Shown here: positions 19,697 to 34,942 of the stretch, piece by piece
Numbering within the stretch: position 1 is the stretch's first letter
Layout: each line of letters starts with the position of its first letter
From: Crocinitomicaceae bacterium
Lineage (GTDB): Bacteria > Bacteroidota > Bacteroidia > Flavobacteriales_D > Crocinitomicaceae
Direction: 5' to 3'
DNA: 64,000 nucleotides
Assembly: GCA_044240055.1 (NCBI GenBank)
Contig: JBIIAG010000010.1
Coordinates: 18,463-82,462, forward strand
Program-made: the position numbers and the translations under genes
Notes under the pieces: generated by a model
Databases searched by the model: none
Seen by the model: the letters and a program-made list of their open reading frames with translations, nothing else
Told to the model about the DNA's origin: nothing

Positions 19697-21835
19697 ATGA
19701 AACATTTACTACTATTAATCAGCGTATTTCTTTCCCTTGGACTTTGGTCACAAGTACCGAGTTATGTTCCACAATATGGACTTTTAGGATACTATCCTTT
19801 TAATGGCACACCGAATGATGTCAGTGCAAATGCAGCAAACTTAACGAACAATGGAGCTGTACTTACCGCAGATCGATTTGGTACTGCAAATGCAGCATAT
19901 TCCTTTAATGGTGTCAATCAAAACTTAATCAATAACACACCAAATTTCACATTTAATCCGACTTCAAGTTTCACGTATTCATTTTGGTATAATCGCAATG
20001 TGACATCATTAAACGGTGTCCTAATGATGAACGCAACAAATGCTGCAGGGAACTTTATTTGGATTTTTCAAGCTGGTGCAACGAATTCGCAATTCGGAAC
20101 CAACAAACAACAATCAGCTTGGATTTGGGCTCCAACAGCATCGACAACAAGTACTTGGACTCACATTGTCTGTGTTTACAATGCAGGGGCGATGACACTT
20201 TACAAGAATAATGTTCAAGTGGCAACAGCAACCTTTACCCACACAAACGTAACTAGCGCAACTTTACCACTTTATATTGGCCGAGGTGTTGGTGGAGATT
20301 TTTACAATGGTAAAATGGATGATATTGGCATCTGGAATAGAGCCTTAACTCCTTGTGAGATCAACGATTTATACAACAGTTCCAATTCATTAACAGGCGT
20401 AAGTGCTGGAGTAGATATAAATAGTTGTAACAACTCATCCATTACACTGAACGGATCAGGAGCACTTAATTATTTTTGGAATCAAAATGTGTCTAATGGT
20501 ATCCCATTTACGCCGGCTACTAACGGGACCTACCTTGTAACTGGATTCAATGCAAATGGTTGCTCTGCATGGGATGAAACCAATGTTACTTTGGGACAAT
20601 TAAGCATAAATGCCGGACAAGATTTAGCTGTTTGTCCAGGAGATACCGTAACACTTTCAGCAACGGGCGCACAAACCTACACATGGACAAATTCTGTCAC
20701 GAATAATCAACCTTTTGTTGCCACGCAAAGTGGAACGTACATAGCAACAGGTGTTGATGGAGCATGTACAGATACAGATACCTTACAGATTAATATCTTA
20801 CCGTTACCACAAATCAACGCAGGAAATGACACCGTACTTTGTGCCGGTGGAATTGTTACTTTGAATGCTACAGGCGGACAAAACTACCAATGGAATAATA
20901 ACGTGCAAAACGCTGTTCCATTTAGCGCGTTAAATAGCGCTTCCTACATCGTTACAGGATTCAGTCCGGCTGGATGTGCTAACGAAGATACAGTAGAAGT
21001 CATCGCGAATCCAGTTCCTAATATCAATGCTGGGAATGATGTTACTACTTGTTCAGGTCAATCCGTTGTACTAACAGCAATTGGTGGTTTCAATTTACAA
21101 TGGAACAATGGCGTGCAAGATGGTATTCCATTTTTCCCAAGTACAAACGGTACTTATATTGTAACAGGAATGAGTAACGATGGATGTTATGGAACAGACA
21201 CATTGGATTTAAGCGTCGGAACTTTACCGGATATTTCAGCAGGAAACGACCAAGTAATTTGTCAAGGTGACTCAGTTGTATTGGCTGCAAACGGTGGCTC
21301 TACCTACCAATGGATCAATGGCGTAACAAATGGCGGCATTTTTTCTCCAACACAGACCATCACCCTCGAAGTAACTGGTTTCAGTGGTGCTGGATGTAGC
21401 AACATCGATTCGATGACCATTACAGTGAATAATCCCAGTCAAAGTACTGTAACAGCAAATGGAATTGATGTGTATACATTCAATGGAATTGAATACACCA
21501 CATCAGGTACATTCACACAAGTAATTTCCAATTCAGCAGGATGCGATAGTACCATTACACTTGTTTTAAGTATGGAATATACCGGTCTATCTGAAGGGGA
21601 TTTTTCTTCTTTGAACGTTTATCCAAATCCAACGAATGGGGAACTATTCATACTTATTCCGGCAGATTTAATTGGTCAAAAAGCTAGTTTAAGAGATGTT
21701 TCCGGAAAGAAAATTGCATCGATTGAATTGAACGAAGGAACAAGCAATTTTAATTTGAACGGACTTTCCAACGGAACTTATTTTATCGTGATTGATCAGC
21801 TGAGTTTAGCTCCGATTCGAGTAGTGAAAGAGTAA
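19697..21835 (+). CDS. LamG (concanavalin A-like lectin) domain surface protein with tandem Ig-like repeats and a type A T9SS C-terminal sorting domain
   Basis: Signal peptide. LamG_3-like N-terminus (YPFNGTPNDVS...WTHIVCVYNAGAMTLYKNN...LYIGRG...FYNGKMDDIGIWNRALT). There are 5-6 repeats of about 70 aa (INAGND..C.G..V.L.A.GG..YQW.N.V.NG.PF). The C-terminus VYPNPTNGELFI...GTYFIVI fits the type A CTD. Confidence 0.85.
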   Translation: MKHLLLLISVFLSLGLWSQVPSYVPQYGLLGYYPFNGTPNDVSANAANLTNNGAVLTADRFGTANAAYSFNGVNQNLINNTPNFTFNPTSSFTYSFWYNRNVTSLNGVLMMNATNAAGNFIWIFQAGATNSQFGTNKQQSAWIWAPTASTTSTWTHIVCVYNAGAMTLYKNNVQVATATFTHTNVTSATLPLYIGRGVGGDFYNGKMDDIGIWNRALTPCEINDLYNSSNSLTGVSAGVDINSCNNSSITLNGSGALNYFWNQNVSNGIPFTPATNGTYLVTGFNANGCSAWDETNVTLGQLSINAGQDLAVCPGDTVTLSATGAQTYTWTNSVTNNQPFVATQSGTYIATGVDGACTDTDTLQINILPLPQINAGNDTVLCAGGIVTLNATGGQNYQWNNNVQNAVPFSALNSASYIVTGFSPAGCANEDTVEVIANPVPNINAGNDVTTCSGQSVVLTAIGGFNLQWNNGVQDGIPFFPSTNGTYIVTGMSNDGCYGTDTLDLSVGTLPDISAGNDQVICQGDSVVLAANGGSTYQWINGVTNGGIFSPTQTITLEVTGFSGAGCSNIDSMTITVNNPSQSTVTANGIDVYTFNGIEYTTSGTFTQVISNSAGCDSTITLVLSMEYTGLSEGDFSSLNVYPNPTNGELFILIPADLIGQKASLRDVSGKKIASIELNEGTSNFNLNGLSNGTYFIVIDQLSLAPIRVVKE

Positions 21836-21837
21836 TG

Positions 21838-22000
21838 ATGTGCTAATTGGGGAATGTGCTAATGTGCTAATGTTTCAATGTGCTAATGTTTCAATGTGCT
21901 AATGTTTCAATGTGCTAATGTTTTAATGTGCTAATGTTTCAATGTGCTAATGTTTCAATGTGCTAATGTTTTAATGTGCTAATTGGTGGAAGTGCTAATT
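21838..22000 (+). repeat. tandem array with a 16-bp unit GTGCTAATGTTTCAAT (8-bp sub-period GTnnnAAT), about 10 units
   Basis: The GTGCTAA core recurs at 21840, 21856, 21864, 21880, 21896, 21912, 21928, 21944, 21960, 21976 and 21992. That is an exact 16-bp phase from 21864 onward. Variants are GTTTTAAT and TGGGGAAT. The array starts 3 nt after the stop codon of the LamG gene. Confidence 0.9.
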
Positions 22001-22059
22001 CCTCTATTGACAATTAAATGAGTAATATTGCTGCTTCAAAATACTTAACCTGACATTTT

Positions 22060-22923
22060 GTGCAAGAATTCATCGCATACATAAATCACCATCCACTGAG
22101 GATTATTGCTATACTCGTTGTGATTTTCGCTATTCTAGTTACGCTATTTTTTGTTTTGAAAAAGGGTATAAAGAAATGGCTAACACTTGGACTATTAATC
22201 GTTTTTATTCCACTTGCATTTAGGATTGTTAAATTGACACCGATAAAACGCTTAAACTTTTTCCAAGAAACGAGCATCACCAAAGAAAACACAGACCTCT
22301 CATCCTATGAAAAAAATGGTGTTAAAACCTTTGGGATTGACATTTCACACCATCAAGGGACGCTAAATTGGGATTCATTAATCACCTCAAAACATCCCAT
22401 ACAATTTGTCATCATTCGAGCGACATATGGCTCCACAATATTGGACCGGGAATTTCATCGAAACTGGAATGAGAGCAGCGGAAAACCATACATCAGAGGC
22501 GTTTATCACTATTATCGTCCTGACCAATCATCCGCAAGCCAATTTGATTTCTTTAAAAGCCACGTTTACCTCAAAAAAGGAGATTTGCCACCCGTTTTGG
22601 ATATTGAAGAAAATAGTTCGTTTGGAAGCGAAAACTTACTGAAAGGCGTTAAAAACTGGTTGAAATTAGCGGAACAACACTACCGAATCAAACCAATCAT
22701 TTATGCCAACTTGAACTTTTATTTACGCTACTTCAATACACCCGATTTTAAAAAATACCATTTTTGGATTGCAGCCTATGCGGGACATCGGCGTGTAAAC
22801 AATATTCCATGGACCTTTCTTCAATTTTCTGAAAACATGAGGGTAAAAGGGACAAATGAAAATGTAGATGGAAATGATTTCAACGGAAACAGAAAGGATT
22901 TAGAGAAATTGACAATTCGTTAA
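22060..22923 (+). CDS. membrane-anchored GH25 family muramidase (lysozyme)
   Basis: Two N-terminal hydrophobic helices. GH25 motifs are present: FGIDISHHQG, FVIIRATYG, GVYHYYRP, LPPVLDIEE. The start is GTG per the ORF track. Confidence 0.8.
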   Translation: MQEFIAYINHHPLRIIAILVVIFAILVTLFFVLKKGIKKWLTLGLLIVFIPLAFRIVKLTPIKRLNFFQETSITKENTDLSSYEKNGVKTFGIDISHHQGTLNWDSLITSKHPIQFVIIRATYGSTILDREFHRNWNESSGKPYIRGVYHYYRPDQSSASQFDFFKSHVYLKKGDLPPVLDIEENSSFGSENLLKGVKNWLKLAEQHYRIKPIIYANLNFYLRYFNTPDFKKYHFWIAAYAGHRRVNNIPWTFLQFSENMRVKGTNENVDGNDFNGNRKDLEKLTIR

Positions 22924-22940
22924 ATCGTACCAAATTAACT

Positions 22941-22948
22941 TATCTTTG
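22941..22948 (+). promoter_or_regulatory. Bacteroidota sigma-A type -7 box (TAnnTTTG) for the GH3 gene
   Basis: TATCTTTG lies only 7 nt upstream of the ATG at 22956. Confidence 0.4.
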
Positions 22949-22955
22949 GATCGAG

Positions 22956-25574
22956 ATGAGAACATTCTACCTTTTGATATTCATCGGATTCACCTCCGTA
23001 CTTACGGCGCAAAACTATAAGGATCCAAATCAAGAAACCTCCATTCGCGTAAAGGATTTGCTATCGCGAATGACTTGGGAAGAAAAATGTTGGCAGTTAT
23101 TCATGGTGCCAGGCGATACGAACTTACTTCATGGACAACTTGTCAACGGGATCTTTGGTCTACAAGTCAGTGCGCAATCGGCAGGTGATGTAGCTGGTCA
23201 AGGGCTAAACTACCAAACATCTCACCCCGCTGCTATTCAAATGGAACGCCTCAATTCAATTCAAAAATATTGCATCGAAGAAACACGTTTAGGAATTCCA
23301 ATGCTGCCATTCGATGAAGCGTTACATGGACTTGTTCGAAATGGCGCAACTGCTTTTCCGCAGTCTATTGCTTTAGCTGCGACTTGGGACACTGAACTTG
23401 TTCATCAAGCTGCTTTGCATATTTCATATGAAACCAAACAACGTGGCATTCGACAAATATTGTCACCTGTGGTGAATTTAGCGACAGATGTCCGCTGGGG
23501 ACGAACGGAAGAAACCTATGGTGAAGATCCGTTTCTTAGTGCTCAAATGGGGGTAGCCTTCATGCGTGCGTTCGAAGAAAACGGCATCATTACCACACCA
23601 AAACATTTTATTGCCAACGTTGGCGATGGCGGACGAGACAGCTATCCAATTCACCTGAGTAAATGGTATTTGGAACGGATGCACCTCGCTCCCTTCGAAC
23701 GCGCCATAAAAAATGCGGGAAGTCGATCTATTATGACCTCCTACAATTCCTTGAATGGACAAGCATGCTCCTCAAATAAATGGTTATTAACCGATAAATT
23801 GAAAAAAGATTGGGGATTTCAAGGATTTGTCATTTCAGATGCTAATGCCGTTGGTGGAGAATTGGTCCTTCATCAAACTTCCGCAGGATATGTAGAAAGT
23901 GGCGTGCATGCCATCAACGCTGGTCTCGATGTGATTTTCCAAACGGATATTGCACATTTCCCCTTGTTTTTCCCAGTGTTTCCACCTAAGGAAATGGACA
24001 CGCTACGAATCAATGATGCCGTTTCACGCGTATTAAAAGCAAAATTTGAATTAGGCTTATTCGAACATCCGTATGCACAGCAAACGATGAATTTGGATTC
24101 ACTTTTAACGGCTGGACATCAACTTGCACAAAAAGTCGCTGAAGAATCCATCGTTTTACTTAAGAATGACGAGGCAATACTTCCTTTGAGTATGGATATT
24201 GAATCCATTTCTATCTTCGGGGAAGACGCCGTTTTAGGTCGATTGGGTGGGTATAGTGGACCCGGATTTCAAGTCATTTCCATTTTGGATGGCATCAAAG
24301 CAGCGTTTCCAGAAAAAGAAATTTCTTTCGAAAAAGGCGTCTTACTCAAAGATACAAGTATCCAAGTCATTTCTAGTCGCTCTATAACTCACAATGAGAA
24401 TCCTGGTTTTCTAGGCGAATACTTTAGTAACCCGAAATTAGAAGGAACTCCCGTATTCACACGAAGAGATGAGCAAATTGATTTTCATTGGACACTTTAT
24501 GGTCCACACACTTCTATGAACCCACATTTCTATAGTGTTCGTTGGACTGGAACTTATAAACCAGTAAAATCAGGAAATTTAACCCTCGGACTCGAAGGAA
24601 ATGATGGCTATCGACTTTTCATCAATGGAGAATTGTTAATAGACCGTTGGGAAAAACAATCTTATCACCAAGATTTGATCGAATATTCATTCAAAAAAGG
24701 TGTTGCGTACAATCTTCAAATTGAGTTCAAAGAAAGCCAAGGAAATGGATTGATAAAATTCATTTCGAAACATGTTGATGAAAAAGCAAAAAAAGCTCAA
24801 TTAAACCGAATCGTAAAGTGTTCAAAATCTGCAGCAACGAACATTGTTGTCGTAGGAATCGAGGAAGGAGAATTCAATGACCGAGCATCCTTAAGCGTGT
24901 CAAAACAACAAGAACAATTAATTCATACCGTAGCCAAAAACGGAAAGAACACCATCGTCATAATCGTTGGTGGTAGTGCCGTAAATATGGAATCTTGGAT
25001 TGAAGAAGTAAATGGAGTTCTCGCTGTTTGGTATCCGGGAGAAGCAGGTGGTAAAGCAGTAGCAAATATTCTAAACGGAACGGTGAATCCCTCTGGAAGA
25101 CTTCCGATTACCTACCCGCTTAATGAAGCACAATTACCACTCATTTATAATCATTTACCAACAGGTAGAGGCGATGATTATCGAAACCTCAGTGGCGAAC
25201 CCTTATTTCCTTTTGGATTTGGACTTAGCTATACCACATTTGACTATGCCATTGATGAAATAGAAAAAAACACATATCAACTTGGGGATACACTTAAAAT
25301 CAATCTTAAACTTACAAATACAGGATCAAGAAAAGGAACAGAGGTCGTTCAATGTTACTTAAAAAGCCTTCTGACGGATGAAATCAGGCCGGTTCAGGAG
25401 TTGATTCAATTTCAACGTATTCCTTTAAACGCTGACGAAACTTCGATACAAGAACTTCAATTTATCTTGAACCAAGACTTATCTACATTTGGACTCTCGC
25501 CAGGTGACTATGAAGTTCAAATTGGACATTCATCCAAAGACATTAGAAAAGTTATTCCTTTCAGGGTTCAATAG
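22956..25574 (+). CDS. bglX: GH3 beta-glucosidase with an inserted PA14 domain
   Basis: 872 aa with a signal peptide. GH3 motifs are LPFDEALHG, GRTEETYGEDP and KDWGFQGFVISDANAV (nucleophile Asp). The PA14-like segment reads GFLGEYFSNPKLEGTPVFTRRDEQIDFHW...GNDGYRLFINGELLID. Confidence 0.9.
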   Translation: MRTFYLLIFIGFTSVLTAQNYKDPNQETSIRVKDLLSRMTWEEKCWQLFMVPGDTNLLHGQLVNGIFGLQVSAQSAGDVAGQGLNYQTSHPAAIQMERLNSIQKYCIEETRLGIPMLPFDEALHGLVRNGATAFPQSIALAATWDTELVHQAALHISYETKQRGIRQILSPVVNLATDVRWGRTEETYGEDPFLSAQMGVAFMRAFEENGIITTPKHFIANVGDGGRDSYPIHLSKWYLERMHLAPFERAIKNAGSRSIMTSYNSLNGQACSSNKWLLTDKLKKDWGFQGFVISDANAVGGELVLHQTSAGYVESGVHAINAGLDVIFQTDIAHFPLFFPVFPPKEMDTLRINDAVSRVLKAKFELGLFEHPYAQQTMNLDSLLTAGHQLAQKVAEESIVLLKNDEAILPLSMDIESISIFGEDAVLGRLGGYSGPGFQVISILDGIKAAFPEKEISFEKGVLLKDTSIQVISSRSITHNENPGFLGEYFSNPKLEGTPVFTRRDEQIDFHWTLYGPHTSMNPHFYSVRWTGTYKPVKSGNLTLGLEGNDGYRLFINGELLIDRWEKQSYHQDLIEYSFKKGVAYNLQIEFKESQGNGLIKFISKHVDEKAKKAQLNRIVKCSKSAATNIVVVGIEEGEFNDRASLSVSKQQEQLIHTVAKNGKNTIVIIVGGSAVNMESWIEEVNGVLAVWYPGEAGGKAVANILNGTVNPSGRLPITYPLNEAQLPLIYNHLPTGRGDDYRNLSGEPLFPFGFGLSYTTFDYAIDEIEKNTYQLGDTLKINLKLTNTGSRKGTEVVQCYLKSLLTDEIRPVQELIQFQRIPLNADETSIQELQFILNQDLSTFGLSPGDYEVQIGHSSKDIRKVIPFRVQ

Positions 25575-25638
25575 AATGTGGGCTTAATTAGGTGAAATAT
25601 AAGGCCGACTTCCATTATGTTCCATTTGATATTTGTAG

Positions 25639-26931
25639 TTAAAACATCACCGAAATTGATTCAAAGTATTGCTCAAAATACTCATCAGTAAAAATCGGAT
25701 AATCAATTTTTGACCGGTAATATCGAAAATCTGATTGTAACTTTTCCGTTGACTCACCAAGTTTATAAGAGATTTGTAATTTAAAAAACGAAGTAAATAA
25801 TTCTATAAATTCTCGATATCCATGTCGAATGTGCCCATAAGGAATATCTTCAAGAATACTACTTGCTTGCGCGAATTGTCCATCTTCAATTAAACGTGAT
25901 GCTTGAAATACTCTGTGTATGGACACTTGTGAAAGGTGGTACCAAAATTTAATACTATTCACCAAGTGGGAATGATCAAGAACCAATTTCATTAAATCTG
26001 GATCGCGAGAAACCAAACATTGAACACAAGGCTCGTATAAAAGTTCTGTTGCAAATTGGGGTTCAGCATTCAAGCGAAGTTTTATTTTAGCAATCAAAGA
26101 ACGTCTAGAACTTTTATTTTTCGTTAAGAGTATTTTAAGTCCGAAAATTCTACCATATAAAATCGGGTGCTGACTTATATCGAGATCAGGTAACCGTCGG
26201 ATACTTTGTTGAACCATGTCCTCTTGCATTAAAAAACTGCGCCAATGTTCTAGACAGACAATAAATGTTTTTGTTTCCTGATCAAGATTCGTTTGATTCA
26301 TTAAGAAACGAATCCATTTACCATATTTTTGATTTAAACGCGAATAGTCGACAAATATCTTGAATACTAAGTCTCTAAAATTGGGTTCAAGAAGCAATTG
26401 CTCCTCTAATTCTTCATCGTCAAAATTCCTAAAATGCAGTCCGACCAAGACACCAATTTGCGCTACTTCATCGTAAGGCAATGCTGCAAATTGAAAATCT
26501 GGTTCGCGAAAGACCCGAAGTAATCCATTTAAATCTCTACGGTAAATTAACTCCCTAAGACCAATCGTAAGAGAAACCGTAAAATGATCATTATGACGTT
26601 TTCGAAAGCGTAATAATTCTATTAACTCAGTAGAATCCTCATGGGAAAGATCAACAAATAAACGTTCCCAAGTAGGCCATGTATCCACCTCCGCATATCG
26701 TTGACTGAAGTCCTTAAAGGAACGAAAACCACAATAAACGGAAAGTTGATCCAAGGTATTTTCTCTCGGTTTACGGTATTCTGCCAATCCAAAAAAACGA
26801 CGCAATGTGTTGTAAGAGAGTAGCGCATTTGTTTTTTCGTAAATATCTTGTACGAGCGCTTCACAATGACCTCTATCTGTGATTTTTCGATTAAAGGTTT
26901 TTTCAATTTCAAGTTTTAATTCATCAATCAT
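25639..26931 (-). CDS. hypothetical all-alpha protein with an N-terminal HTH-like segment (paralogue 1 of 2)
   Basis: 430 aa. It is colinear with ORF 30893..32176 over the full length, with many shared blocks: LSYNTLRRFFG / VSYNTFRRLFG, LRELIYRRDL, FRDLV.K.FVDYS.LN.KYG.WI, HPILYGRI, YPIFT.EYF..YF. Confidence 0.6.
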   Translation of the reverse strand: MIDELKLEIEKTFNRKITDRGHCEALVQDIYEKTNALLSYNTLRRFFGLAEYRKPRENTLDQLSVYCGFRSFKDFSQRYAEVDTWPTWERLFVDLSHEDSTELIELLRFRKRHNDHFTVSLTIGLRELIYRRDLNGLLRVFREPDFQFAALPYDEVAQIGVLVGLHFRNFDDEELEEQLLLEPNFRDLVFKIFVDYSRLNQKYGKWIRFLMNQTNLDQETKTFIVCLEHWRSFLMQEDMVQQSIRRLPDLDISQHPILYGRIFGLKILLTKNKSSRRSLIAKIKLRLNAEPQFATELLYEPCVQCLVSRDPDLMKLVLDHSHLVNSIKFWYHLSQVSIHRVFQASRLIEDGQFAQASSILEDIPYGHIRHGYREFIELFTSFFKLQISYKLGESTEKLQSDFRYYRSKIDYPIFTDEYFEQYFESISVMF

Positions 26932-27030
26932 GATGCAAATGTATCATTTGTGTATCATTTTGACACTTTATATTATTTAATATTATCCAAAATTTACATG
27001 AATTAATTAATATTTTAAATCTTAAAAAAA

Positions 27031-27645
27031 ATGAATAATTACATTATTGAAGGTTTTTTAGTGGAACAAAAGGTAGGGATACTCAGTAGTTCAAGCTATG
27101 CAAGAAGAAAAACTGGATTAGATTTTGCCATTGCAAAACTAAATGATCATTATGAAAACGGACTAACTTATGTATGTAATTACGATGCATACGTTCAGCT
27201 TAAACCTGGCTGTATGAGAAAAATCATCCGTTTCATACGAAAAAAAGACAAGGAAGAGCCTATTGAAATTAAATATAAATATGCCGTTTTCACGAAAAAT
27301 GAGCATAAGATATCAGGATTTAAATTCACGGAAATTCCTTCTGTTTGGACTTCCGTTACGCTCGGTGTATTTGACAAAAAACATATTCAAGACCCCTATT
27401 TAGAACAAGGGAAAATAGCAGTAGCCGATTTTATCAACAAAAATCCCCAAGTTAAACCTTACTGTGATCTTGAAGTTATGGTGAAATTTAAACCAGGCTT
27501 TTTTAGACGAATTTGGAATTTTATCACTGGAAAATCTTACAAAAACAAGTTTAGCTTTGATTATTTTTCATTTAATATCGCTCAAGATTTTAGAACAGAT
27601 AACTCAGAATTTGAAGGAAGTTTCCTGAAAAAACTACTTAAATAG
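27031..27645 (+). CDS. hypothetical soluble protein with an internal domain duplication
   Basis: 204 aa. Two halves of about 90 aa share the motif V.(L/F)KPG(C/F).R(K/R)I..FI..K (YVQLKPGCMRKIIRFIRKK versus VMVKFKPGFFRRIWNFITGK). It is transcribed divergently from 25639..26931. Confidence 0.55.
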   Translation: MNNYIIEGFLVEQKVGILSSSSYARRKTGLDFAIAKLNDHYENGLTYVCNYDAYVQLKPGCMRKIIRFIRKKDKEEPIEIKYKYAVFTKNEHKISGFKFTEIPSVWTSVTLGVFDKKHIQDPYLEQGKIAVADFINKNPQVKPYCDLEVMVKFKPGFFRRIWNFITGKSYKNKFSFDYFSFNIAQDFRTDNSEFEGSFLKKLLK

Positions 27646-27669
27646 GGTGAATGAAATAGCTGATAAAAA

Positions 27670-27879
27670 ATGAAGGTTATTTTCACCTATTTGATTAAAC
27701 GATATCAGAACAATAAGAAAGAAGATCATGTAGATTCGTGTATTTTCATACCATGTTGCTCTGAATATGCTCTACTAGCCTTGAAAAAACATAACTTTAT
27801 CAGGGCTAGTTTTTTAATTGTAAAAAGAATTTACAATTGTGATGTAAATAAGAGCTGCGGTGGTCATGACTATCCCTAA
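27670..27879 (+). CDS. YidD-like (membrane protein insertion efficiency factor family) small protein
   Basis: 69 aa. LIKRYQ...CIFIPCCSEYALLALKKHNFIRASFLIVKRIYNC....CGGHDYP aligns by eye with E. coli YidD LIRVYQ...[46 protein letters not shown]. Confidence 0.65.
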   Translation: MKVIFTYLIKRYQNNKKEDHVDSCIFIPCCSEYALLALKKHNFIRASFLIVKRIYNCDVNKSCGGHDYP

Positions 27880-27957
27880 AAAAGAACGTAAGTAACGATT
27901 TATTGAATTTTATGTTTATTTTCGTTTTACTCCTATTAATTAAAATTGATTCCATAA

Positions 27958-28755
27958 ATGTACAACGAACAAATTGACAAATTAATTGAAATGGCGCTCA
28001 TGGACGGAGAGCTAACGGAGAAAGAAAAACAAATTCTTTTCAAGAAAGCTGAATCCTTGGGTTTAGATTTAGATGAGTTCGAAATGGTTCTTGACGCCAA
28101 ACTATTTGAGAAAAAACAAGCGTCAAATTCCAATAATACTACAGCTAGTGCCGCTCCAGTTTCGGATAAACTAGGTGATGTAAAGAAATGTCCAGGATGT
28201 GGCGCAATAACAGAGTCATTTTCAACAAAATGTTCTGATTGTGGCACTGAATTCAGAAACATAAATGCTTCCCAAAACATTACGAAATTTTTTGACAAAC
28301 TAAATGAATTGGAAGCAGGGAGAGAAGAAAGTCTTTTTGGATCTCAAAAAATAAGTGGAAATATTGGTTGTGGAACCATCATAAAATGGTTTTTTTTATA
28401 CCCCATTTTAATCCCATATAATATTATCATTTTTGTCATCAACAAGTCAAAACCTCCTAAATGGTCTACGACCGATATTAGAAAAGAAGAAATGATCATG
28501 AATTTCCCCGTGCCCAACTCTAAAGAGGAAATTATTGAGTTTTTAACTCTCTCCACAAGCAAGATTCAGGAGGTTTCTTTGATCAATCGTTTCAACGAGG
28601 AAGGTAAATACATATCTAAATGGAATTCGATTTGGCGTAAAAAAGCAGAGCAAATATTTACCAAAGCAAAGTTATCAATGTCAAATGACAAAGCAACAAT
28701 ACAAGTAATTGAAAACATGCTGATTGATGCAAAAATAATTCATGTAAAAAAATAG
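27958..28755 (+). CDS. TerB-like N-terminal domain / zinc-ribbon / single-TM protein
   Basis: 265 aa. The N-terminus IDKLIEMALMDGELTEKEKQILFKKAESLGLDLDEF is TerB/DjlA-N-like. The zinc ribbon reads CPGCGAITESFSTKCSDCG. The TM helix is IIKWFFLYPILIPYNIIIFVI. The stop lies 2 nt before the next start. Confidence 0.6.
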   Translation: MYNEQIDKLIEMALMDGELTEKEKQILFKKAESLGLDLDEFEMVLDAKLFEKKQASNSNNTTASAAPVSDKLGDVKKCPGCGAITESFSTKCSDCGTEFRNINASQNITKFFDKLNELEAGREESLFGSQKISGNIGCGTIIKWFFLYPILIPYNIIIFVINKSKPPKWSTTDIRKEEMIMNFPVPNSKEEIIEFLTLSTSKIQEVSLINRFNEEGKYISKWNSIWRKKAEQIFTKAKLSMSNDKATIQVIENMLIDAKIIHVKK

Positions 28756-28757
28756 TT

Positions 28758-30092
28758 ATGGGACTTTTCAGCAAGAAAACAGAAGGCGGAATGATGGATG
28801 TGATTCGCTGCGATGAGCATGAATATTTAGTTTGGAAATGGAGTCCCTCTGGAGAAGCTAATTCCACAAAAAAAGAAAATGCCATCCGCTATGGAAGTAG
28901 TTTACGCGTGAAAGATGGTGAACTTGCTGTTTTCGTGTACCAACAAAAAGACGGTTCCATGCAGGACTTTATTGTAGGTCCTTTTGATCAAACCATTAAA
29001 TCAGCCAATTTCCCAATACTAACTTCCATTGTCGGTGCAGCTTTTGGCGGATCTTCTCCTTTTCAGGCTGAAATATACTTTATCAATTTAGCAGGAAATA
29101 TTCCAATTAAATTTGGCGTACCCTATTTCAATATTACCGACAGTAGATTGCCTGATTTTCCAGTTCCGATGTCTGTAAGGGGACAACTCATTTTTAATAT
29201 CACAGACTACAAATTATTTATTAAAAATACGCGACTAATTAATTTTGAGTTAGAAGACTTTAAAAATCTTGTTAAATCAGCTGTTACAAGTAGTGTAAAA
29301 TCTGGTGTAATGAATATTAACCGCACCAACCCACTGAACTTGGTTCAAATTGAGGAAAATCTTGATTTGATAAATGAGCATCTAAGGACCAAACTTAAAG
29401 ATATTTTTACTGAGGATTTCGGAGTCAACCTAAAACGCTTTGACATTGATTCTTTGGAATTAGATCAAGAAAGTGAAGGATTTAAAAAACTGATACAAGT
29501 AACCAGAAATCAGCAAGAAAAAACATTAACAGCTCAAACAGATGTTGCGATCAAAAACATGAATGACATGCAAGGTATGAATGCTGAAAACTTAGAAGAA
29601 ACCTTGCGTATCCAACGTGAAGAAGCTCAAAGGGCTCAGAAATTGCAAACCGAAACCAATTTTATTGGCGCTCATGCCCTGAACCAACAAACGGATGTTT
29701 TAAAAACCGGCGCTGAAAGTTTGGGTACTATGGGTGATATGAATTCAGGCGGTGGTATGAACCCTGCAGGAATGATGACGGGAATGATGATGGGAGGAGC
29801 CATGGGAAATCAAATGGCTGGTATGATGAACAATATGGGGCAAAATATGCAACAACAGCAAAATACACCACCTCCACCTCCCACAATTTCATATAGTGTT
29901 GCAATAAACGGTCAAACAGCTGGACCCTTTAATTTACAGCAATTACAACAAATGGTTCAAAATGGACAGCTGACTCAAAATACGCATGTGTGGAAGCAAG
30001 GAATGACCGCGTGGGAATTAGCTGGGAATGTACCAGAAATTAACACTTTATTCGCTGCAGTTCCTCCTCCACCTCCACCTCCGACACTATAA
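28758..30092 (+). CDS. YdjI/COG4260-type SPFH-like protein with an M/G/N/Q-rich disordered linker, poly-Pro tracts and a C-terminal GYF_2 domain
   Basis: 444 aa. The N-terminal ~300 aa resembles B. subtilis YdjI as I recall it (VIRCDEHEYLVWKW..., RVKDGELAVFV). The linker is GGMNPAGMMTGMMMGGAMGNQMAGMMNNMGQNMQQQQ and is followed by PPPPP. The GYF_2-like segment reads YSVAINGQTAGPFNLQQLQQMVQNGQLTQNTHVWKQGMTAWELAGNVPEI. The protein ends in PPPPPPPP. Confidence 0.65.
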   Translation: MGLFSKKTEGGMMDVIRCDEHEYLVWKWSPSGEANSTKKENAIRYGSSLRVKDGELAVFVYQQKDGSMQDFIVGPFDQTIKSANFPILTSIVGAAFGGSSPFQAEIYFINLAGNIPIKFGVPYFNITDSRLPDFPVPMSVRGQLIFNITDYKLFIKNTRLINFELEDFKNLVKSAVTSSVKSGVMNINRTNPLNLVQIEENLDLINEHLRTKLKDIFTEDFGVNLKRFDIDSLELDQESEGFKKLIQVTRNQQEKTLTAQTDVAIKNMNDMQGMNAENLEETLRIQREEAQRAQKLQTETNFIGAHALNQQTDVLKTGAESLGTMGDMNSGGGMNPAGMMTGMMMGGAMGNQMAGMMNNMGQNMQQQQNTPPPPPTISYSVAINGQTAGPFNLQQLQQMVQNGQLTQNTHVWKQGMTAWELAGNVPEINTLFAAVPPPPPPPTL

Positions 30093-30109
30093 ATTTTATT
30101 TTTTGATAA

Positions 30110-30457
30110 ATGGAAGATAACTTTTTTGCGATAGACAAACTTGTTGAGTTTGGCCTTAGTATGGCTGTTGCACAACAAATGGTAAAAACAATGAACCATA
30201 CGATGGAACATATGCACGTATCTGGACATCAGAATACACATCTAGCACCTATGCAAGTTCTGTATTATGCTGTTATTGATAACCAACAAGCTGGTCCTTT
30301 TTCCGAACATGAAATAAGTCGTTTAATCACGTCAAAAGAAATAACAAAAGAATCGTTTATCTGGAAGCCAGGCTTATCTAATTGGGTGCACGCTGAGCAA
30401 ATTCCTGAAATTTTAAAGCTTGTGATTCTTTGTCCACCAACACTACCAAAACCATAA
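30110..30457 (+). CDS. small GYF_2 (DUF4339) domain protein
   Basis: 115 aa. YYAVIDNQQAGPFSEHEISRLITSKEITKESFIWKPGLSNWVHAEQIPEI parallels the C-terminal domain of the preceding protein. Confidence 0.6.
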   Translation: MEDNFFAIDKLVEFGLSMAVAQQMVKTMNHTMEHMHVSGHQNTHLAPMQVLYYAVIDNQQAGPFSEHEISRLITSKEITKESFIWKPGLSNWVHAEQIPEILKLVILCPPTLPKP

Positions 30458-30462
30458 CTAAC

Positions 30463-30807
30463 ATGAAAATAAATTCAAGTTTCACGATAATATCCATTAT
30501 TTTAAGCGCTCTCATCTCTTATGGATTTTATTCCTATGCAAGTGAAGAAAGTAAGAATCTAATTACCATTGGCAGTTTTATTTCAATGGTGATTCCGCTT
30601 ATTTTTATGCTGTGTGTTCAATATGAATTACCACGAACAACAATGAACATTCGGGCAATCTCGTCCGTTTTTCTGATGCTTTTCATTTTCCTGAATTTTT
30701 TAGAAGTTATCGTTAAACTCTCGACTCCCTTGTACATTGTAAGTTCAGGAATTTTACTTTGTGTCTTTCTCATTCTATTGACTTCAATAAACCGTGCTAA
30801 GCAATAA
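30463..30807 (+). CDS. small integral membrane protein (about 4 TM helices)
   Basis: Start refined to the in-frame ATG (MKINSSFTIISIILSAL...), 5 nt after the preceding stop. Four hydrophobic stretches are present. Confidence 0.55.
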   Translation: MKINSSFTIISIILSALISYGFYSYASEESKNLITIGSFISMVIPLIFMLCVQYELPRTTMNIRAISSVFLMLFIFLNFLEVIVKLSTPLYIVSSGILLCVFLILLTSINRAKQ

Positions 30808-30892
30808 GTCAAGGAAGAATTAGTTTCTCAATAAGCCCATGAAGGCATTGTGAAATACTCATCGGTTCAAGTTGAAAATTTACATGTTCTGT

Positions 30893-32176
30893 TTAGGTAA
30901 TGAACTTCCTAAAATATTCCCTGAAATATTCCTCTGTGAAAATGGGATAATTTAAATATGCTACTTGATTTAATAATCGACGCCAAATTTCTTCCCGTTC
31001 CGTAGCATCTTGACACAGTTCGTGTTGGAACAAATAAACGAACAAAAGAAGAAATTCATCATAACCATAACGCAAATAACTAAGATCAATTTGATGCAAG
31101 TACGTTTTTGCATTTTTTGTTTGTCCTATAAAAAGGTGATGCTGTACTAATGATAGATAGTAGACATTCAACTGGGATAAATTGTACCAAAAATGGAGAT
31201 TTGCTGCATGTTTTTCAAAACTGGCTAAAAAATGAGAGAATTCCATGGAAGGAAAAACTAGACACTGTACATTTGAAACGAAAATATATTCCAACGTTCG
31301 CTCTGGACTCTTTTTAATCAAGTTTGACCAGTTACGAAATACCTGTTCTCGCTCGGACAATTCAGGTTTAATCAACAAGTTTAAAGCAGCGATTCTGCCA
31401 TACAAAATGGGGTGTAAATTCTCATGAAGTTTTGGCAAAAGGGCTATGTGCTCAGATGTGATTTCCATTCCATTTAGCAAATCTTTCCAAATCAACAAGC
31501 CATTGGTGAAAATCAAGGATTCCTCATCAAGGTTAGGTAATTGATTCACATATGAAATCCATCTCCCATACTTTTTATTCAACCCGGAATAATCAACAAA
31601 CATTTTCAAAACAAGATCCCGAAATAAGGGCAATTTGAGCAATTCATTTTCAAATTCCTCGTCCTCTATAAACCGAAATTGGCGTCCAACAACGACACCA
31701 ATCTTCAAAGCAATCTCATAAGGCAAATTTGAAAAAGACCATTCATCTTGAGATAAAACAACTTGTAAGGAGGGTAAATCTCGTCTATAAATCAATTCTC
31801 GCAACAGCACAGTAAACGAATAGGGGAAATCCTCTTTTTGAGAGAAACGGTATTTGAGGATACTCACCAATTCCGGCGCTTCACCTTCATCAATTCCAAA
31901 AAATAAATTCTCCCATTTGGGCCATTCATCTACGGAATGAAACCGATTAGTAAAATCACGATACGATGAAAACCCAATGTATTTCGACAAAGCATCTAAA
32001 GTGGATAAGCGTGGGACTCTGTATTCAATAATCCCAAACAAACGACGAAACGTATTGTAAGAAACAAAAATATTGGTCTTAGCGAATAAATCTAGTGCAA
32101 GTGTCTCACAATCTGACCTCTTTTGGATTTTATGTCCAAACACCTTTTCAACCTCTTGTTTTAATTCTTGAATCAC
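30893..32176 (-). CDS. hypothetical all-alpha protein with an N-terminal HTH-like segment (paralogue 2 of 2)
   Basis: 427 aa. It is colinear with ORF 25639..26931 and diverged, which rules out a recent duplicate. Confidence 0.6.
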   Translation of the reverse strand: MIQELKQEVEKVFGHKIQKRSDCETLALDLFAKTNIFVSYNTFRRLFGIIEYRVPRLSTLDALSKYIGFSSYRDFTNRFHSVDEWPKWENLFFGIDEGEAPELVSILKYRFSQKEDFPYSFTVLLRELIYRRDLPSLQVVLSQDEWSFSNLPYEIALKIGVVVGRQFRFIEDEEFENELLKLPLFRDLVLKMFVDYSGLNKKYGRWISYVNQLPNLDEESLIFTNGLLIWKDLLNGMEITSEHIALLPKLHENLHPILYGRIAALNLLIKPELSEREQVFRNWSNLIKKSPERTLEYIFVSNVQCLVFPSMEFSHFLASFEKHAANLHFWYNLSQLNVYYLSLVQHHLFIGQTKNAKTYLHQIDLSYLRYGYDEFLLLFVYLFQHELCQDATEREEIWRRLLNQVAYLNYPIFTEEYFREYFRKFIT

Positions 32177-32257
32177 GATTCAAATGTACCACTTATGTAC
32201 CAAATATTAAAAACACGTTTCTTAATTTTGAGGCCATTAAAAATTCTTCGTTTACCA

Positions 32258-32560
32258 ATGAAAAAAACAGCTATTTTAAATCTCATAGGTCTGTTATTAA
32301 TAGTCTTGTTCAGTTCGTGTGCTAAAAAAGCAGAGGACTATGCATACCTCGTTGATTCCTACAGGAAAATTTGCTGTAAGACACTAAGTTCAAACACAAT
32401 CCCCTTAGATGTAAGAAAACGGGCAATGCGAAAGAAAATAAAGCTTGAACAAGATTTCAAGGAAGCTTTAAGACATTTAAAACAAAATGGAAAAGAGAAG
32501 CTGACCAAGCAATGGTCAGAAGTGATTGTTGATGCCGAAAATGGAAAGTGCAAGTATTAA
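32258..32560 (+). CDS. small basic lipoprotein
   Basis: Start refined to the in-frame ATG giving MKKTAILNLIGLLLIVLFSSCAKK (lipobox). It is divergent from paralogue 2. Confidence 0.5.
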   Translation: MKKTAILNLIGLLLIVLFSSCAKKAEDYAYLVDSYRKICCKTLSSNTIPLDVRKRAMRKKIKLEQDFKEALRHLKQNGKEKLTKQWSEVIVDAENGKCKY

Positions 32561-32566
32561 AGTCCT

Positions 32567-33202
32567 TTAGTGCGCATCTTTCACCTTATTCATGGTCGTT
32601 AAAAACGTTTCCATTTCTTGCGCCCCACTAACCGCATATTTACGATCAAAAACGAAAAAAGGCACTCCTCTTACGCCGAATTGCTGAGCCAGGTTAATAT
32701 CTGAATCAATTTCTTGCGAATATTCTCCAGTTAAAATCTTTATATCCAAAGCTGTGGTGTTTAATCCTACCTCCGCTGCTAATTCAACCAGGATGTTTAC
32801 ATCATCAATGTTTTTCCCTTCCACGAAATGTGCTTCAAACAATCGCTCTTCCATTTCGTGTTGGAAGCCTTGTACTCGAGATTCGTGTAGTAATTGATGC
32901 GCTTTCATCGTATTTGCAAGTACAACATCACTGAATTGATAATCAAGTCCAACTGCACTACCAGATTCGGTGATGTGAGACGTCATTTGACGCGCTTGCT
33001 CTTCGGCAAACCCTTTATTTTCAGCTAAATACTGAAAAATGGATACTGTAGGATCACTTGTCAAATCGGGATTTAACAGAAATGATTTCCACTCAATTTC
33101 AACATCATCTTTTCCTGAAAACTGAGCTAACGCTAAATCAAATTTTCGTTTACCCAAGTAACAAAATGGACAAGCAATATCACTCCAAATTTCAATTTTC
33201 AT
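32567..33202 (-). CDS. DsbA family (FrnE-like) thiol oxidoreductase
   Basis: 211 aa. N-terminus IEIWSDIACPFCYLGKRKF (CPFC active site). C-terminus GVRGVPFFVFDRKYAVSGAQ. Confidence 0.8.
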   Translation of the reverse strand: MKIEIWSDIACPFCYLGKRKFDLALAQFSGKDDVEIEWKSFLLNPDLTSDPTVSIFQYLAENKGFAEEQARQMTSHITESGSAVGLDYQFSDVVLANTMKAHQLLHESRVQGFQHEMEERLFEAHFVEGKNIDDVNILVELAAEVGLNTTALDIKILTGEYSQEIDSDINLAQQFGVRGVPFFVFDRKYAVSGAQEMETFLTTMNKVKDAH

Positions 33203-33330: not shown

Positions 33331-33960
33331 ATGGGACTCGTTCGAATAGACAGACCGCAAATTGAACAGATGGATAAAATCCAACGGTTAAACCTAATCA
33401 ATAGCTGCACGGGATATAAATCCGCGAATTTAATTGGCACGATTTCAAATTCAGGTAAAACCAACGTAGCCGTTTTCTCTAGCGTGACACACATCGGAAG
33501 TGATCCTGCGTTAATTGGATTTATTATTCGTCCAAGTTTCACTCCAAGGAATACATATTCGAACATTAAAGAATACGGATATTTCTCCATCAATCACATT
33601 TACAGTGACATCATTGAAGAGGCGCATCAATCCTCGGCAAACTATACAGAGGATGAAAGTGAATTTGATTTTACTAAGTTGGAAGCCGTTTACCATGGGG
33701 GATGTCCCGTTCCATTTGTCAAAGGAAGTCCCGTTAAAATTCTGTGTAAATTCGTAAATGAATACCACATCAAAGAAAATGATTGTAGGCATATTATTGC
33801 TTCAATCGAAGCAATATTCTATGAAGAAGCGCTTCTAGATCATGAACACCATTTACAGCTTGAAAAAGGAAATGTGGTTGCTATTTCTGGATTGAAAGCC
33901 TATTCCCTCCCCAAACTTTTGAAAGAATTTCCAAGAGCTATCATTCCAAAAACGAAGTAA
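33331..33960 (+). CDS. flavin reductase-like (FMN-binding split-barrel) protein
   Basis: 209 aa. LINSCTGYKSANLIGTISNSGKTNVAVFSSVTHIGSDPALIGFIIRP resembles the flavin reductase-like domain pattern. The call rests on motif memory only. Confidence 0.45.
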   Translation: MGLVRIDRPQIEQMDKIQRLNLINSCTGYKSANLIGTISNSGKTNVAVFSSVTHIGSDPALIGFIIRPSFTPRNTYSNIKEYGYFSINHIYSDIIEEAHQSSANYTEDESEFDFTKLEAVYHGGCPVPFVKGSPVKILCKFVNEYHIKENDCRHIIASIEAIFYEEALLDHEHHLQLEKGNVVAISGLKAYSLPKLLKEFPRAIIPKTK

Positions 33961-33961
33961 C

Positions 33962-34942
33962 TCACTTCACCTCTACACCGAATTCTCTGAATCGAGCAAG
34001 CAACATATCTAATTCATATGTGCGGTAAATATATAGTTCAACGACCATGTAATTTGGATGATCTACCACTATTCGTTGACTTCTATGCAACAAGCGCTCG
34101 CGGACGTACGACATTGCCCAATCCGTAAATTTAATTCGAATGTATTCAGGTTCGCTATCCTTGAAACGCGCCACTCCCAAACAATGTTTGAAATAATCTT
34201 TTAATCCAACTTTGTGGGCGAGGTCAGCATGGTGAAAATGGATTGTCCGAATCATTGAATTCCCTTCTTCAATCTCTAGCTGTGCCGGCGCTATGACATA
34301 ATCTTCAATCATGTCAAAGGCAAATATTTTAATGCTTCGCTTGAATTGATCTTCTGAATTATCCTTGTAATCCACAGCGACTAAATAAAACCTTCCATCG
34401 TAAAATTTCACTTGAAGCGGTGCGACAATCTGCAATTTAGATCGATAGGTGGTGTGAATTGGTTTATACCAAAACTGAATTGCTTCTTGCTCAAAAATGC
34501 TTTGGACAATTTCCTTCGCAAGGTTCATCGCCTTTCCTCCATCATCTAATGCGGAAAATGAGAAGGACAAAACAGATTCTAAATGAGATCCCTTAGCAGA
34601 AGTATCCTGCATGTGTTCGAGTCCAAGGTTTTTAGCCAGCTGATGTAGCATGAGTGAAGCGACATCTTGTTTTAATTCGGCTTGAATCCCATCGATTTCC
34701 ATTAGTTGATAGGAATGTCGTTTGGAAATATTGACGTGTTTTAAGGTGAGGCCAAGTTCCTCTCGAATAAACTGCAAATCAGATTCCAAGGTGCGGCGAC
34801 TGATTTTTTTCTGTTCCAACAAGGGTAATTGATCATTTAAGTGAGCCAACATTTCTAAAAATGTAGCACGCTTATTTACCTGTTCTCTCAAGAACTTCAG
34901 TAAAACTTGAATCCTTTTACTTTGTGCAGTTAATTGAAACAT
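33962..34942 (-). CDS. HTH + WYL domain transcriptional regulator
   Basis: 326 aa. The N-terminal winged-helix-like segment reads ISRRTLESDLQFIREELGL. The central WYL-like block reads IQFWYKPIHTTYRSKLQIVAPLQVKFYDGRFYLVAVDYKD...IKIFAFDMIED. Confidence 0.6.
   Translation of the reverse strand: MFQLTAQSKRIQVLLKFLREQVNKRATFLEMLAHLNDQLPLLEQKKISRRTLESDLQFIREELGLTLKHVNISKRHSYQLMEIDGIQAELKQDVASLMLHQLAKNLGLEHMQDTSAKGSHLESVLSFSFSALDDGGKAMNLAKEIVQSIFEQEAIQFWYKPIHTTYRSKLQIVAPLQVKFYDGRFYLVAVDYKDNSEDQFKRSIKIFAFDMIEDYVIAPAQLEIEEGNSMIRTIHFHHADLAHKVGLKDYFKHCLGVARFKDSEPEYIRIKFTDWAMSYVRERLLHRSQRIVVDHPNYMVVELYIYRTYELDMLLARFREFGVEVK

Follow-up and report, generated by a model that had tools for sequence, protein, structure and literature searches.

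Introduction

SPFH proteins are found in every domain of life, and their functions in bacteria are poorly defined. To our knowledge, YdjI (also named SamI) of Bacillus subtilis is the sole Band_7_1 protein that has been studied, and it works with PspA. This soluble protein joins its Band_7_1 domain through a low-complexity linker to a small C-terminal adaptor domain (PMC8581546; bioRxiv 10.64898/2026.02.06.704340). It is recruited by the membrane proteins YdjG, which has a zinc ribbon and a transmembrane (TM) segment, and YdjH, and it recruits PspA in turn (PMC8581546). Self-oligomerisation of SPFH domains yields large rings or cages that are associated with membranes (reviews cited in bioRxiv 10.64898/2026.02.06.704340; PMC10936438). 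The locus described here, at positions 27031-30807 of a 64,000-nucleotide stretch of contig JBIIAG010000010.1 from a Crocinitomicaceae bacterium (assembly GCA_044240055.1; the whole stretch is called the window), holds six plus-strand genes, g1 to g6, of which g4 encodes a Band_7_1 protein fused to a GYF_2 domain.

Rather than a single module, the locus probably comprises two separable entities, namely a Bacteroidota-wide membrane SPFH-scaffold operon consisting of g3 to g6 and a rare mobile cassette, g1-g2, docked upstream of it. Gene content, domain families, synteny, the linkage within the cassette and the conservation of motifs are established observations and are given first.

The operon resembles pspA-ydjGHI (samGHI) in that a soluble Band_7_1 protein, ending in a small adaptor domain behind a low-complexity linker, is encoded beside a zinc-ribbon membrane protein and a second membrane protein, with assembly presumed to take place at the cytoplasmic membrane. 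It differs in having no PspA gene in or near it: PspA was not among the families shared by at least two of the 144 open reading frames (ORFs) that flank the operon in related loci, and it had no match in the six proteins and the two proteins that flank them in the window. Where YdjI ends in a zinc finger, g4 ends in GYF_2 and polyproline, a standalone GYF_2 protein (g5) is present in addition, and the host is a Gram-negative member of the Bacteroidota with no sigma-W context. Unlike YdjG, g3 and 40 of its homologues have no match to TF_Zn_Ribbon among the Pfam profiles, and g3 carries TerB-like and novel helical domains; g6 has no significant Pfam or NCBIfam family match. A preliminary description of the locus had proposed a PspA-less relative of ydjGHI. 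The YdjI-type SPFH protein and the missing PspA agree with that proposal, but kinship is confined to the SPFH protein and the rest is analogy. By these profile comparisons, g3-g6 is analogous to, not homologous with, YdjGHI/SamGHI and is not a member of the pspA-ydjGHI group.

The architecture of g4 is not new. The fold survey of Balaji and Aravind (2007), which records this architecture in a figure, notes the fusion of SPFH/Band7 with GYF, the proline tracts that flank it and the neighbouring TM proteins (example gi 32472385), and proline-peptide binding by bacterial GYF domains was inferred there from the same features (PMC2034487). The locus has the same fusion, the proline-rich flanks and the adjacent genes for TM proteins, so the initial view that its composition matched no described system was overstated. 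Not covered in the main text of that survey are the four-gene Bacteroidota operon, the g3 and g6 families, the phylum-wide synteny and the YidD-like cassettes (PMC2034487). Literature searches on Band_7_1, COG4260, DUF4339/GYF_2 and SPFH proteins in Bacteroides or Flavobacterium found no study of the operon, and no earlier account of the four genes together, the families of g3 and g6 or the cassettes came to light.

A conserved four-gene operon

Homologous loci were collected in a scan of one genome per species, which gave 424 loci encoding a relative. The best 80 were analysed and are referred to as core loci; their labels are Flavobacteriales, Crocinitomicaceae, Chitinophagaceae, Cyclobacteriaceae, Saprospiraceae, Bacteroidales (Prevotella, Alistipes and Bacteroides sp. 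214) and Kapaibacterium. The presence of each gene in them was determined by tblastn with the window proteins. Ten loci that carry g1 (L081-L090) are not among these 80.

In the window, g3 (27958-28755, 265 amino acids, aa), g4 (28758-30092, 444 aa), g5 (30110-30457, 115 aa) and g6 (30463-30807, 114 aa) follow each other on the plus strand. All four were found in 66 of the 80 core loci and their order and strand are kept in 64, contig ends explaining most of the incomplete cases. Synteny in that many independent loci is far beyond chance, and it extends over Flavobacteriales, Chitinophagales, Bacteroidales and Kapaibacteria, at least four orders. The g3 gene lies directly upstream of g4 in 72 loci and a g6 orthologue comes directly after g5 in 74 of 74, while the median gaps are 17 nucleotides (nt) between g3 and g4, 20 nt between g4 and g5, and 4 nt between g5 and g6. 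Because order and strand are conserved and the median gaps are short, g3-g6 is, as far as comparative genomics can tell, a conserved functional unit of Bacteroidota.

The ORF coordinates of the window bear out the six plus-strand genes as first described, with gaps of 24, 78, 2, 17 and 5 nt from g1 to g6. The last value assumes that g6 starts at the ATG at 30463; the mechanically called ORF opens at a TTG at 30430, and the ATG was chosen because every orthologue opens with MK(I/V)N.

The four proteins are conserved to different degrees, with median identities to the window of 70.5% for g4, 57.7% for g5, 43.5% for g3 and 38.8% for g6. Across the core loci g4 ranges from 58 to 95% identity under fixed synteny, and its much higher conservation relative to its partners fits a self-assembling cage with many interfaces. 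By tblastn, g5 orthologues are present in 80 of 80 core loci, with the qualification that the match in L033 lies within the GYF domain of g4 itself.

Nothing else is recurrent around the four genes. Clustering of the flanking ORFs found no family in more than 8 core loci, and in a Pfam census of the 144 flanking ORFs no family occurred in more than 6. The commonest neighbour, in 8 of 80 loci (including L034:7880-9778 and L029:10524-12428), is a gene resembling the CASTOR/POLLUX-type RCK ion channels (Castor_Poll_mid, E 2e-33), an adjacency that is probably lineage synteny. In loci in which g4 and g5 are not adjacent, accessory genes stand between them, among them those for a bPH_1 protein, an uncharacterised 334-aa protein and small TM proteins, and a YidD-like ORF with a 372-aa partner. 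The bPH_1 gene (PF08000, E 1e-47), which encodes a bacterial PH-domain protein, stands between g4 and g5 in 8 loci, including L004:9416-9793 and L005:2436-2813, and is another membrane-associated accessory of the operon.

The SPFH protein and its GYF domains

The g4 protein matches Band_7_1 (PF13421) with 73.8 bits (cut-off 24, E 2e-20) over residues 38-240, encoded at 28869-29477, and GYF_2 (PF14237) with 66.5 bits (cut-off 25.8, E 1.7e-18) over residues 381-427, encoded at 29898-30038; Band_7 (PF01145) is not among its Pfam matches. The order along the protein is Band_7_1, a coiled-coil region, a linker rich in Met, Gly, Asn and Gln, TPPPPP, GYF_2 and VPPPPPPP. Both domains being above their cut-offs, the fusion is that given in the preliminary description, which had read g4 as a YdjI-type SPFH protein joined to GYF_2 through an M/G/N/Q-rich linker. 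Thousands of homologues have the same two-domain architecture, and in the best 120 clusters the identity is 84% or higher and every one consists of Band_7_1 and GYF_2. The arrangement of SPFH domain and coiled-coil region is shared with HflK/C, QmcA, flotillins and stomatin, and a large membrane homo-oligomer would likewise be expected of g4. However, those proteins have a TM segment or hairpin of their own and a Band_7 (PF01145) domain, whereas g4 has Band_7_1 only and no hydrophobic segment, no 19-residue window reaching a hydropathy of 1.6. Among the six proteins, hydrophobic segments occur only in g3 (one helix) and g6 (four), with none in g1, g2, g4 or g5.

The two polyproline tracts that bracket the GYF domain of g4 are encoded at 29868-29885 and 30069-30086. 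Both are kept in nearly all of about 80 orthologues, and the DNA repeat CCACCTCCACCTCC occurs at both of them. The small soluble adaptor g5, a standalone GYF_2 protein as first proposed, matches the family with 59.8 bits (cut-off 25.8, E 2e-16). It begins with a conserved Met-rich helix, RLVEFGMGMAVAQQMV, followed by GYF_2 and a conserved C-terminal LKLVAL-x-PPPF, of which the tail APPPF after the GYF domain is conserved across the phylum. The GYF signature, GPF and W-x3-G-x3-W, is conserved phylum-wide in the orthologues of both proteins, as are the two tracts of g4. The conserved polyproline beside every GYF domain of the operon probably mediates assembly.

In searches against the PDB, g4 was matched through its GYF domain alone, by entry 7z3c, a gliding protein of Myxococcus xanthus (E 0.002). 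This closest solved structure invites the thought that the operon encodes a cytoplasmic regulatory adaptor of a motility or secretion machine, modelled on Myxococcus GltJ, in which zinc-ribbon and GYF domains switch the assembly of focal adhesions; both kinds of domain are indeed found together in the operon, and g4 and g5 have weak NCBIfam matches to GltJ. Only the GYF domain resembles GltJ, scoring 21-25 bits where the cut-off is 450, and no gld, spr or type IX secretion system (T9SS) core gene recurs near the core in the census of 144 ORFs. The operon is also present in gut Bacteroidales metagenome-assembled genomes labelled Prevotella, Alistipes and Bacteroides, which are not known to glide. 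A role of this kind is the most improbable of the explanations considered here.

The membrane proteins g3 and g6

In g3, residues 4-58 form an N-terminal TerB-like hairpin of three helices, residues 76-100 a zinc ribbon of the pattern CPxCG...CxxCG, residues 141-163 an anchor helix and residues 171-257 a helical C-terminal domain, which is conserved. The hydrophobic helix at 141-163 is the only one in the protein and is kinked by prolines, which are conserved, and C78, C81, C92 and C95 are invariant in the family alignment. Homologues number 1846, and every one of them is named "hypothetical". The window protein scores 17.3 bits against TerB (PF05099, cut-off 24.4), and the match covers only profile positions 78-114 of 118, the C-terminal hairpin. 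Both its TerB and its zinc-ribbon matches are below threshold, though consistent across the family: among 40 homologues, TerB is matched by 28 (E <0.01) and Zn_ribbon_3 by 33. This pattern points to a helical hairpin of the TerB-like kind in g3, not to a complete TerB domain. The original label for g3 was "TerB-N-like" with a zinc ribbon and a single TM segment; the ribbon and the one hydrophobic helix were upheld, and the hairpin stands at the level of the family, but the TerB_N profile matched neither g3 nor any of the 40 homologues.

An AlphaFold2 (AF2) model of g3, with a predicted local distance difference test score (pLDDT) of 72.9, has an N-terminal three-helix unit, a zinc ribbon of low confidence, a helix, a hydrophobic helix of 27 residues and a helical C-terminal domain. 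Foldseek found nothing like it in the PDB (best E 0.6), and sequence and profile searches of the PDB with g3 gave chance-level matches only. In 8 loci, including L028:1679-2395 and L016:7186-7998, g3 is adjoined by a paralogue that has no hydrophobic segment and whose TerB and zinc-ribbon matches are stronger than those of g3.

The g6 protein has three strong hydrophobic segments and a weaker N-terminal one, in keeping with the four TM helices first attributed to it, and a conserved PRTTTNIR loop lies between helices 2 and 3. Its sequence and profile searches against the PDB likewise gave matches at chance level only.

How the operon may work

Oligomerisation, the question of which protein anchors which, GYF-proline binding and the physiological role are matters that we infer from analogy. 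As other SPFH proteins do, g4 would self-assemble into a large oligomer, here on the cytoplasmic face of the inner membrane. Since g4 has no anchor of its own, it would need g3 or g6 for attachment to the membrane, and one or both of them may serve as the receptors that hold it there. The GYF_2 domains of g4 and g5 would bind adjacent polyproline tracts, in cis or in trans, and these contacts could cross-link protomers or cap or regulate the assembly. The likely role of the operon is to organise or survey the cytoplasmic membrane. In its way of working it would be like YdjGHI/SamGHI, without a linked PspA and with partners that are not homologous.

The g1-g2 cassette

The two genes upstream of the operon, both on the plus strand, are g1 (27031-27645, 204 aa), which encodes an orphan soluble protein with two alpha/beta repeats, and g2 (27670-27879, 69 aa), of the YidD family of membrane protein insertion efficiency factors. 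Each half of g1 has the motif C-x3-(A/E)-x-V-x2-KPGC-x-(R/K), and BLASTP of one half against the other gives E 3e-5, so the internal duplication reported at first is real yet short. The family is very narrow: a search of 5.8e9 proteins yielded only 10 clusters, and one of 1.84e9 only 4 representative ones. Even so, g1 is regarded as a genuine gene because its homologues are conserved at 48-89% identity to the window protein. One of five AF2 models of g1 is confident (pLDDT 78, predicted template modelling score 0.72), and Foldseek found no match to its fold in the PDB or BFVD.

The initial assignment of g2 to YidD is secure, as it exceeds the curated cut-offs of both PF01809 (57 bits against 27, E 1.7e-15) and TIGR00278 (51.9 bits against 40). 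It has the C-x3-P-x-C-S-x-Y and R-x3-C motifs of YidD, and its invariant residues are C24, P28, C30, S31, Y33, R53 and C57. Unlike the housekeeping YidD of the rnpA-yidD-yidC order, g2 is strictly paired with an orphan gene and set in SPFH loci; no match to the rnpA or yidC families was found in its neighbours g1 and g3, the part of the window that was scanned for them. In all ten g1 loci, a YidD-like ORF comes immediately after g1.

The preliminary description had taken the six genes as one module. In the corresponding integrated stress module, g1 and the YidD-like g2 would be obligate parts, and the common strand and tight gaps of 24 and 78 nt would be expected of it. So would the recurrence of the six-gene layout, with the cassette upstream of the core: beyond the window it was found in L087-L089, which are close relatives, and in L083, a diverged locus (g4 71% and g1 49% identical to the window). 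The preliminary description had named a lack of synteny of the six genes in any other genome as grounds for dropping its idea, and these loci show that such synteny exists. The cassette is also seen upstream of a second type of Band_7_1 protein in L085 and L086, one that has a Gly/Met/Gln-rich linker and multiple zinc ribbons, the architecture of YdjI (L085:1627-2880, with a gene for a 236-aa multi-TM protein after it). Furthermore, 5 of the 80 core loci have YidD-like ORFs, with 34-43% identity to g2, within the core or next to it. Each of these is accompanied by a partner unrelated to g1 (L009:5985-6908, L032:5925-6822, L038:5943-6879, L017:3042-4417 and L058:9377-10707), the partners belonging to 231-aa or 372-aa families that have no Pfam match.

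Against such obligate membership, tblastn found g1 in none of the 80 core loci, and 75 of them have no YidD-like ORF. The close relatives L003 and L024, whose g4 is 83-87% identical to that of the window, have the core without the cassette, and g1-g2 is found away from the core as well, L081 having the cassette with no SPFH gene. In L009, with a g4 that is 84% identical, the slot between the divergent gene and g3 is filled by a 231-aa protein and a YidD-like ORF, an unrelated gene having taken the place of g1. One integrated module of six genes is therefore unlikely, and the cassette appears from these distributions to be an exchangeable add-on that is not part of the conserved machine. A distant relationship of the 231-aa protein of L009, L032 and L038 to g1 was considered and rejected (hhalign probability 1%).

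The swapped partners suggest, at the level of sequence, a family of exchangeable cassettes, each a partner with a YidD-like ORF, at Band_7_1 loci, and the repeated occurrence of the cassette at such loci is suggestive. In the lineage of the window, g1-g2 would have docked upstream of the operon as one instance of this looser theme. The statistics of the cassette are thin because few g1 loci turn up in any search; a further scan for g1 contexts found 4 loci in metagenomes and 0 in viral sequences. YidD-like ORFs in 54 viral or prophage contigs of IMG/VR (L094-L147), 32-48% identical to g2, had no Band_7_1 gene within 5 kb in any case (0 of 54).

Two contigs from sister samples, L084 and L085, are 99.5% identical over the cassette (L084:93-1339 and L085:116-1361) and then diverge, L084 leading into an AAA_11/AAA_12 helicase and a PIN_4 protein and L085 into the Band_7_1 gene with multiple zinc ribbons. 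Probably L084 is the L085 locus with an insertion polymorphism, or else a chimera that arose in assembly.

Phage copies and the question of defence

Two IMG/VR contigs, L093 (7217-9275) and L092 (6579-8732), carry a pair of genes resembling g3 and g4 and have no g5 or g6. The phage-like g3 has a double zinc ribbon, the C-terminal domain of g3 and C-terminal TM segments, while the phage-like g4 consists of Band_7_1 and GYF_2 and is 45% identical to g4. The neighbours in both contigs resemble phage ThyX, MazG and VRR-NUC, as judged from translations alone. In the unannotated GenBank phage record MT835670.1, the region at 14466-15446 is 48% identical to g4, the match being known for g4 alone. Because the phage-like contigs carry these two genes without g5 and g6, g3 and g4 may be regarded as the minimal pair.

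It had been suggested that the module might be triggered by phage, which finds no support in these data, rare phages themselves carrying the g3-g4-like pair. A stronger form of this idea is an anti-phage or abortive-infection system, in which the SPFH/GYF proteins sense infection and g6 acts as a membrane-disrupting effector. Weak g6 matches would agree with it (SLATT_4, E 0.047; the PADLOC 2TM effector, E 5e-4), as would the variable genes, toxin-antitoxin pairs and helicase/PIN genes near some cassette loci and the quick turnover of the partner genes of the YidD-like ORFs. However, the 2TM effector model is matched by only 2 of 61 g6 orthologues, and the other five of the six proteins gave nothing significant with PADLOC. 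The core, moreover, occurs in at least four orders with g4 at 58-95% identity and fixed gene order, a pattern contrary to that of defence systems, which are patchily distributed and evolve fast, and the carriage of g3- and g4-like genes by phages is itself at odds with defence. A defence function for the operon is accordingly very unlikely, and the scan of eight proteins and 61 g6 orthologues with PADLOC left no match standing, as the preliminary description had anticipated. The identification of g6 as a SLATT or 2TM effector was rejected, the SLATT_4 match being below threshold and the two PADLOC matches compositional noise.

Points that weigh against the scaffold reading, and its wider meaning

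A membrane scaffold operon with a separable cassette is the reading that the evidence favours, and several observations weigh against it. The topology of g3 is in conflict with itself. The C-terminal domain follows the only hydrophobic helix of the protein and would be periplasmic if that helix spans the membrane, and yet in the phage version and in the paralogues that lack a TM segment the same domain is clearly on the zinc-ribbon side. Both could hold if the helix were a monotopic anchor kinked by proline, like that of stomatin. An Alistipes locus, L079, retains only g4 and g5, which means that neither of the other two genes is absolutely required. The comparison with the B. subtilis system is weakened by g3 and g6 showing no homology to YdjG or YdjH in their Pfam and NCBIfam matches, and no experiment on any member of the operon was found in the literature. 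As for the link between the cassette and SPFH genes, L081 has the cassette beside a DUF2683/YoeB toxin-antitoxin pair, and the number of independent loci is few and may be smaller still, with L084 and L085 perhaps being one locus.

If the reading is right, the operon extends the logic of a soluble SPFH protein with membrane receptors to a whole Gram-negative phylum, without a linked PspA. It would offer a tractable handle on the recruitment and assembly of SPFH scaffolds and on the ligands of bacterial GYF domains. The interaction between GYF domains and polyproline has been studied so far mainly in eukaryotes, and the built-in GYF/polyproline system of the operon would be directly testable with peptides. 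Orthologues are present in lineages with genetic tools, Flavobacterium and Bacteroides being examples of the labels of such genomes. That YidD-like cassettes recur hints at a link between proteins of the YidD family and SPFH modules that has gone unrecognised.

A bolder picture is that of a PspA-independent, phylum-wide SPFH machine that is assembled through GYF-polyproline contacts, on which rapidly exchanged cassettes of a variable partner and a YidD-like protein dock and from which phages have copied g3 and g4. Taken as a whole this picture is speculative, and its chances are low. Were it true, the YidD family would have a second role, coupling the insertion or quality control of membrane proteins to an SPFH scaffold, and the phage copies of g3 and g4 would serve the manipulation of the host membrane.

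Surroundings of the locus

The six genes are flanked in the window by two minus-strand genes, the divergent one upstream (25639-26931, 430 aa) and the convergent one downstream (30893-32176, 427 aa). Their products are 39% identical to each other and have no Pfam, NCBIfam or PDB match. They had been put forward as two paralogous regulators; the paralogy holds, but no library match supports the name of regulator, and the position is not conserved, as seen in L087. In 13 of the 80 core loci, homologues of the upstream protein are located no more than 8 kb from the core. In L009, L022, L024, L033, L061, L066 and L087, a member of the family is the directly divergent neighbour of g3 or of the cassette. 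The association of this family with the core is loose and lineage-restricted. The downstream paralogue is present in L001 but does not count among the conserved parts, because L087-L089 have only a 49-codon remnant of it.

In L087-L089, this remnant and the 5' end of the upstream gene form a direct repeat of 143 nt, 81% identical between its copies, that brackets g1-g6. In L087, the closest relative with long flanks, the repeat amounts to about 143-185 nt (L087:7761-7941 and L087:11867-12047). It is made up of the 5' end of the divergent 427-aa gene together with the region upstream of that gene; the copy on the downstream side is the 49-codon remnant, and its counterpart in the window is the full-length, 39%-identical paralogue.

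In L003, L009 and L024, g6 is followed immediately by a WYL-domain gene. The window has three genes standing between the two, namely the downstream paralogue, one that is DsbA-like and one for a flavin reductase. The WYL-domain, DsbA-like and flavin reductase genes take up 33962-34942 on the minus strand, 33331-33960 on the plus strand and 32567-33202 on the minus strand, with the WYL-domain gene farthest from g6. In L003 the flavin reductase gene is instead upstream of the divergent gene. As the positions of the WYL and flavin reductase genes differ between the window and L003, L009 and L024, the flanks of the operon have been rearranged.

The profile of guanine-plus-cytosine (GC) content around the locus has no compositional island, there are no tRNA genes in the window, and an Rfam scan of 25000-33000 gave no match. 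Scans for sigma-70 promoters and terminators, and for the Bacteroidota -7 motif TAnnTTTG, gave no more matches than chance would, and transcription units could not be delimited from them. Further upstream, the region at 19697-25574 encodes a Laminin_G_3 protein with a T9SS C-terminal sorting domain, a GH25 muramidase and a GH3/PA14 beta-glucosidase, and is syntenic with L087. This gene content and a GC content of about 38% are consistent with a Flavobacteriales-type Bacteroidota genome.

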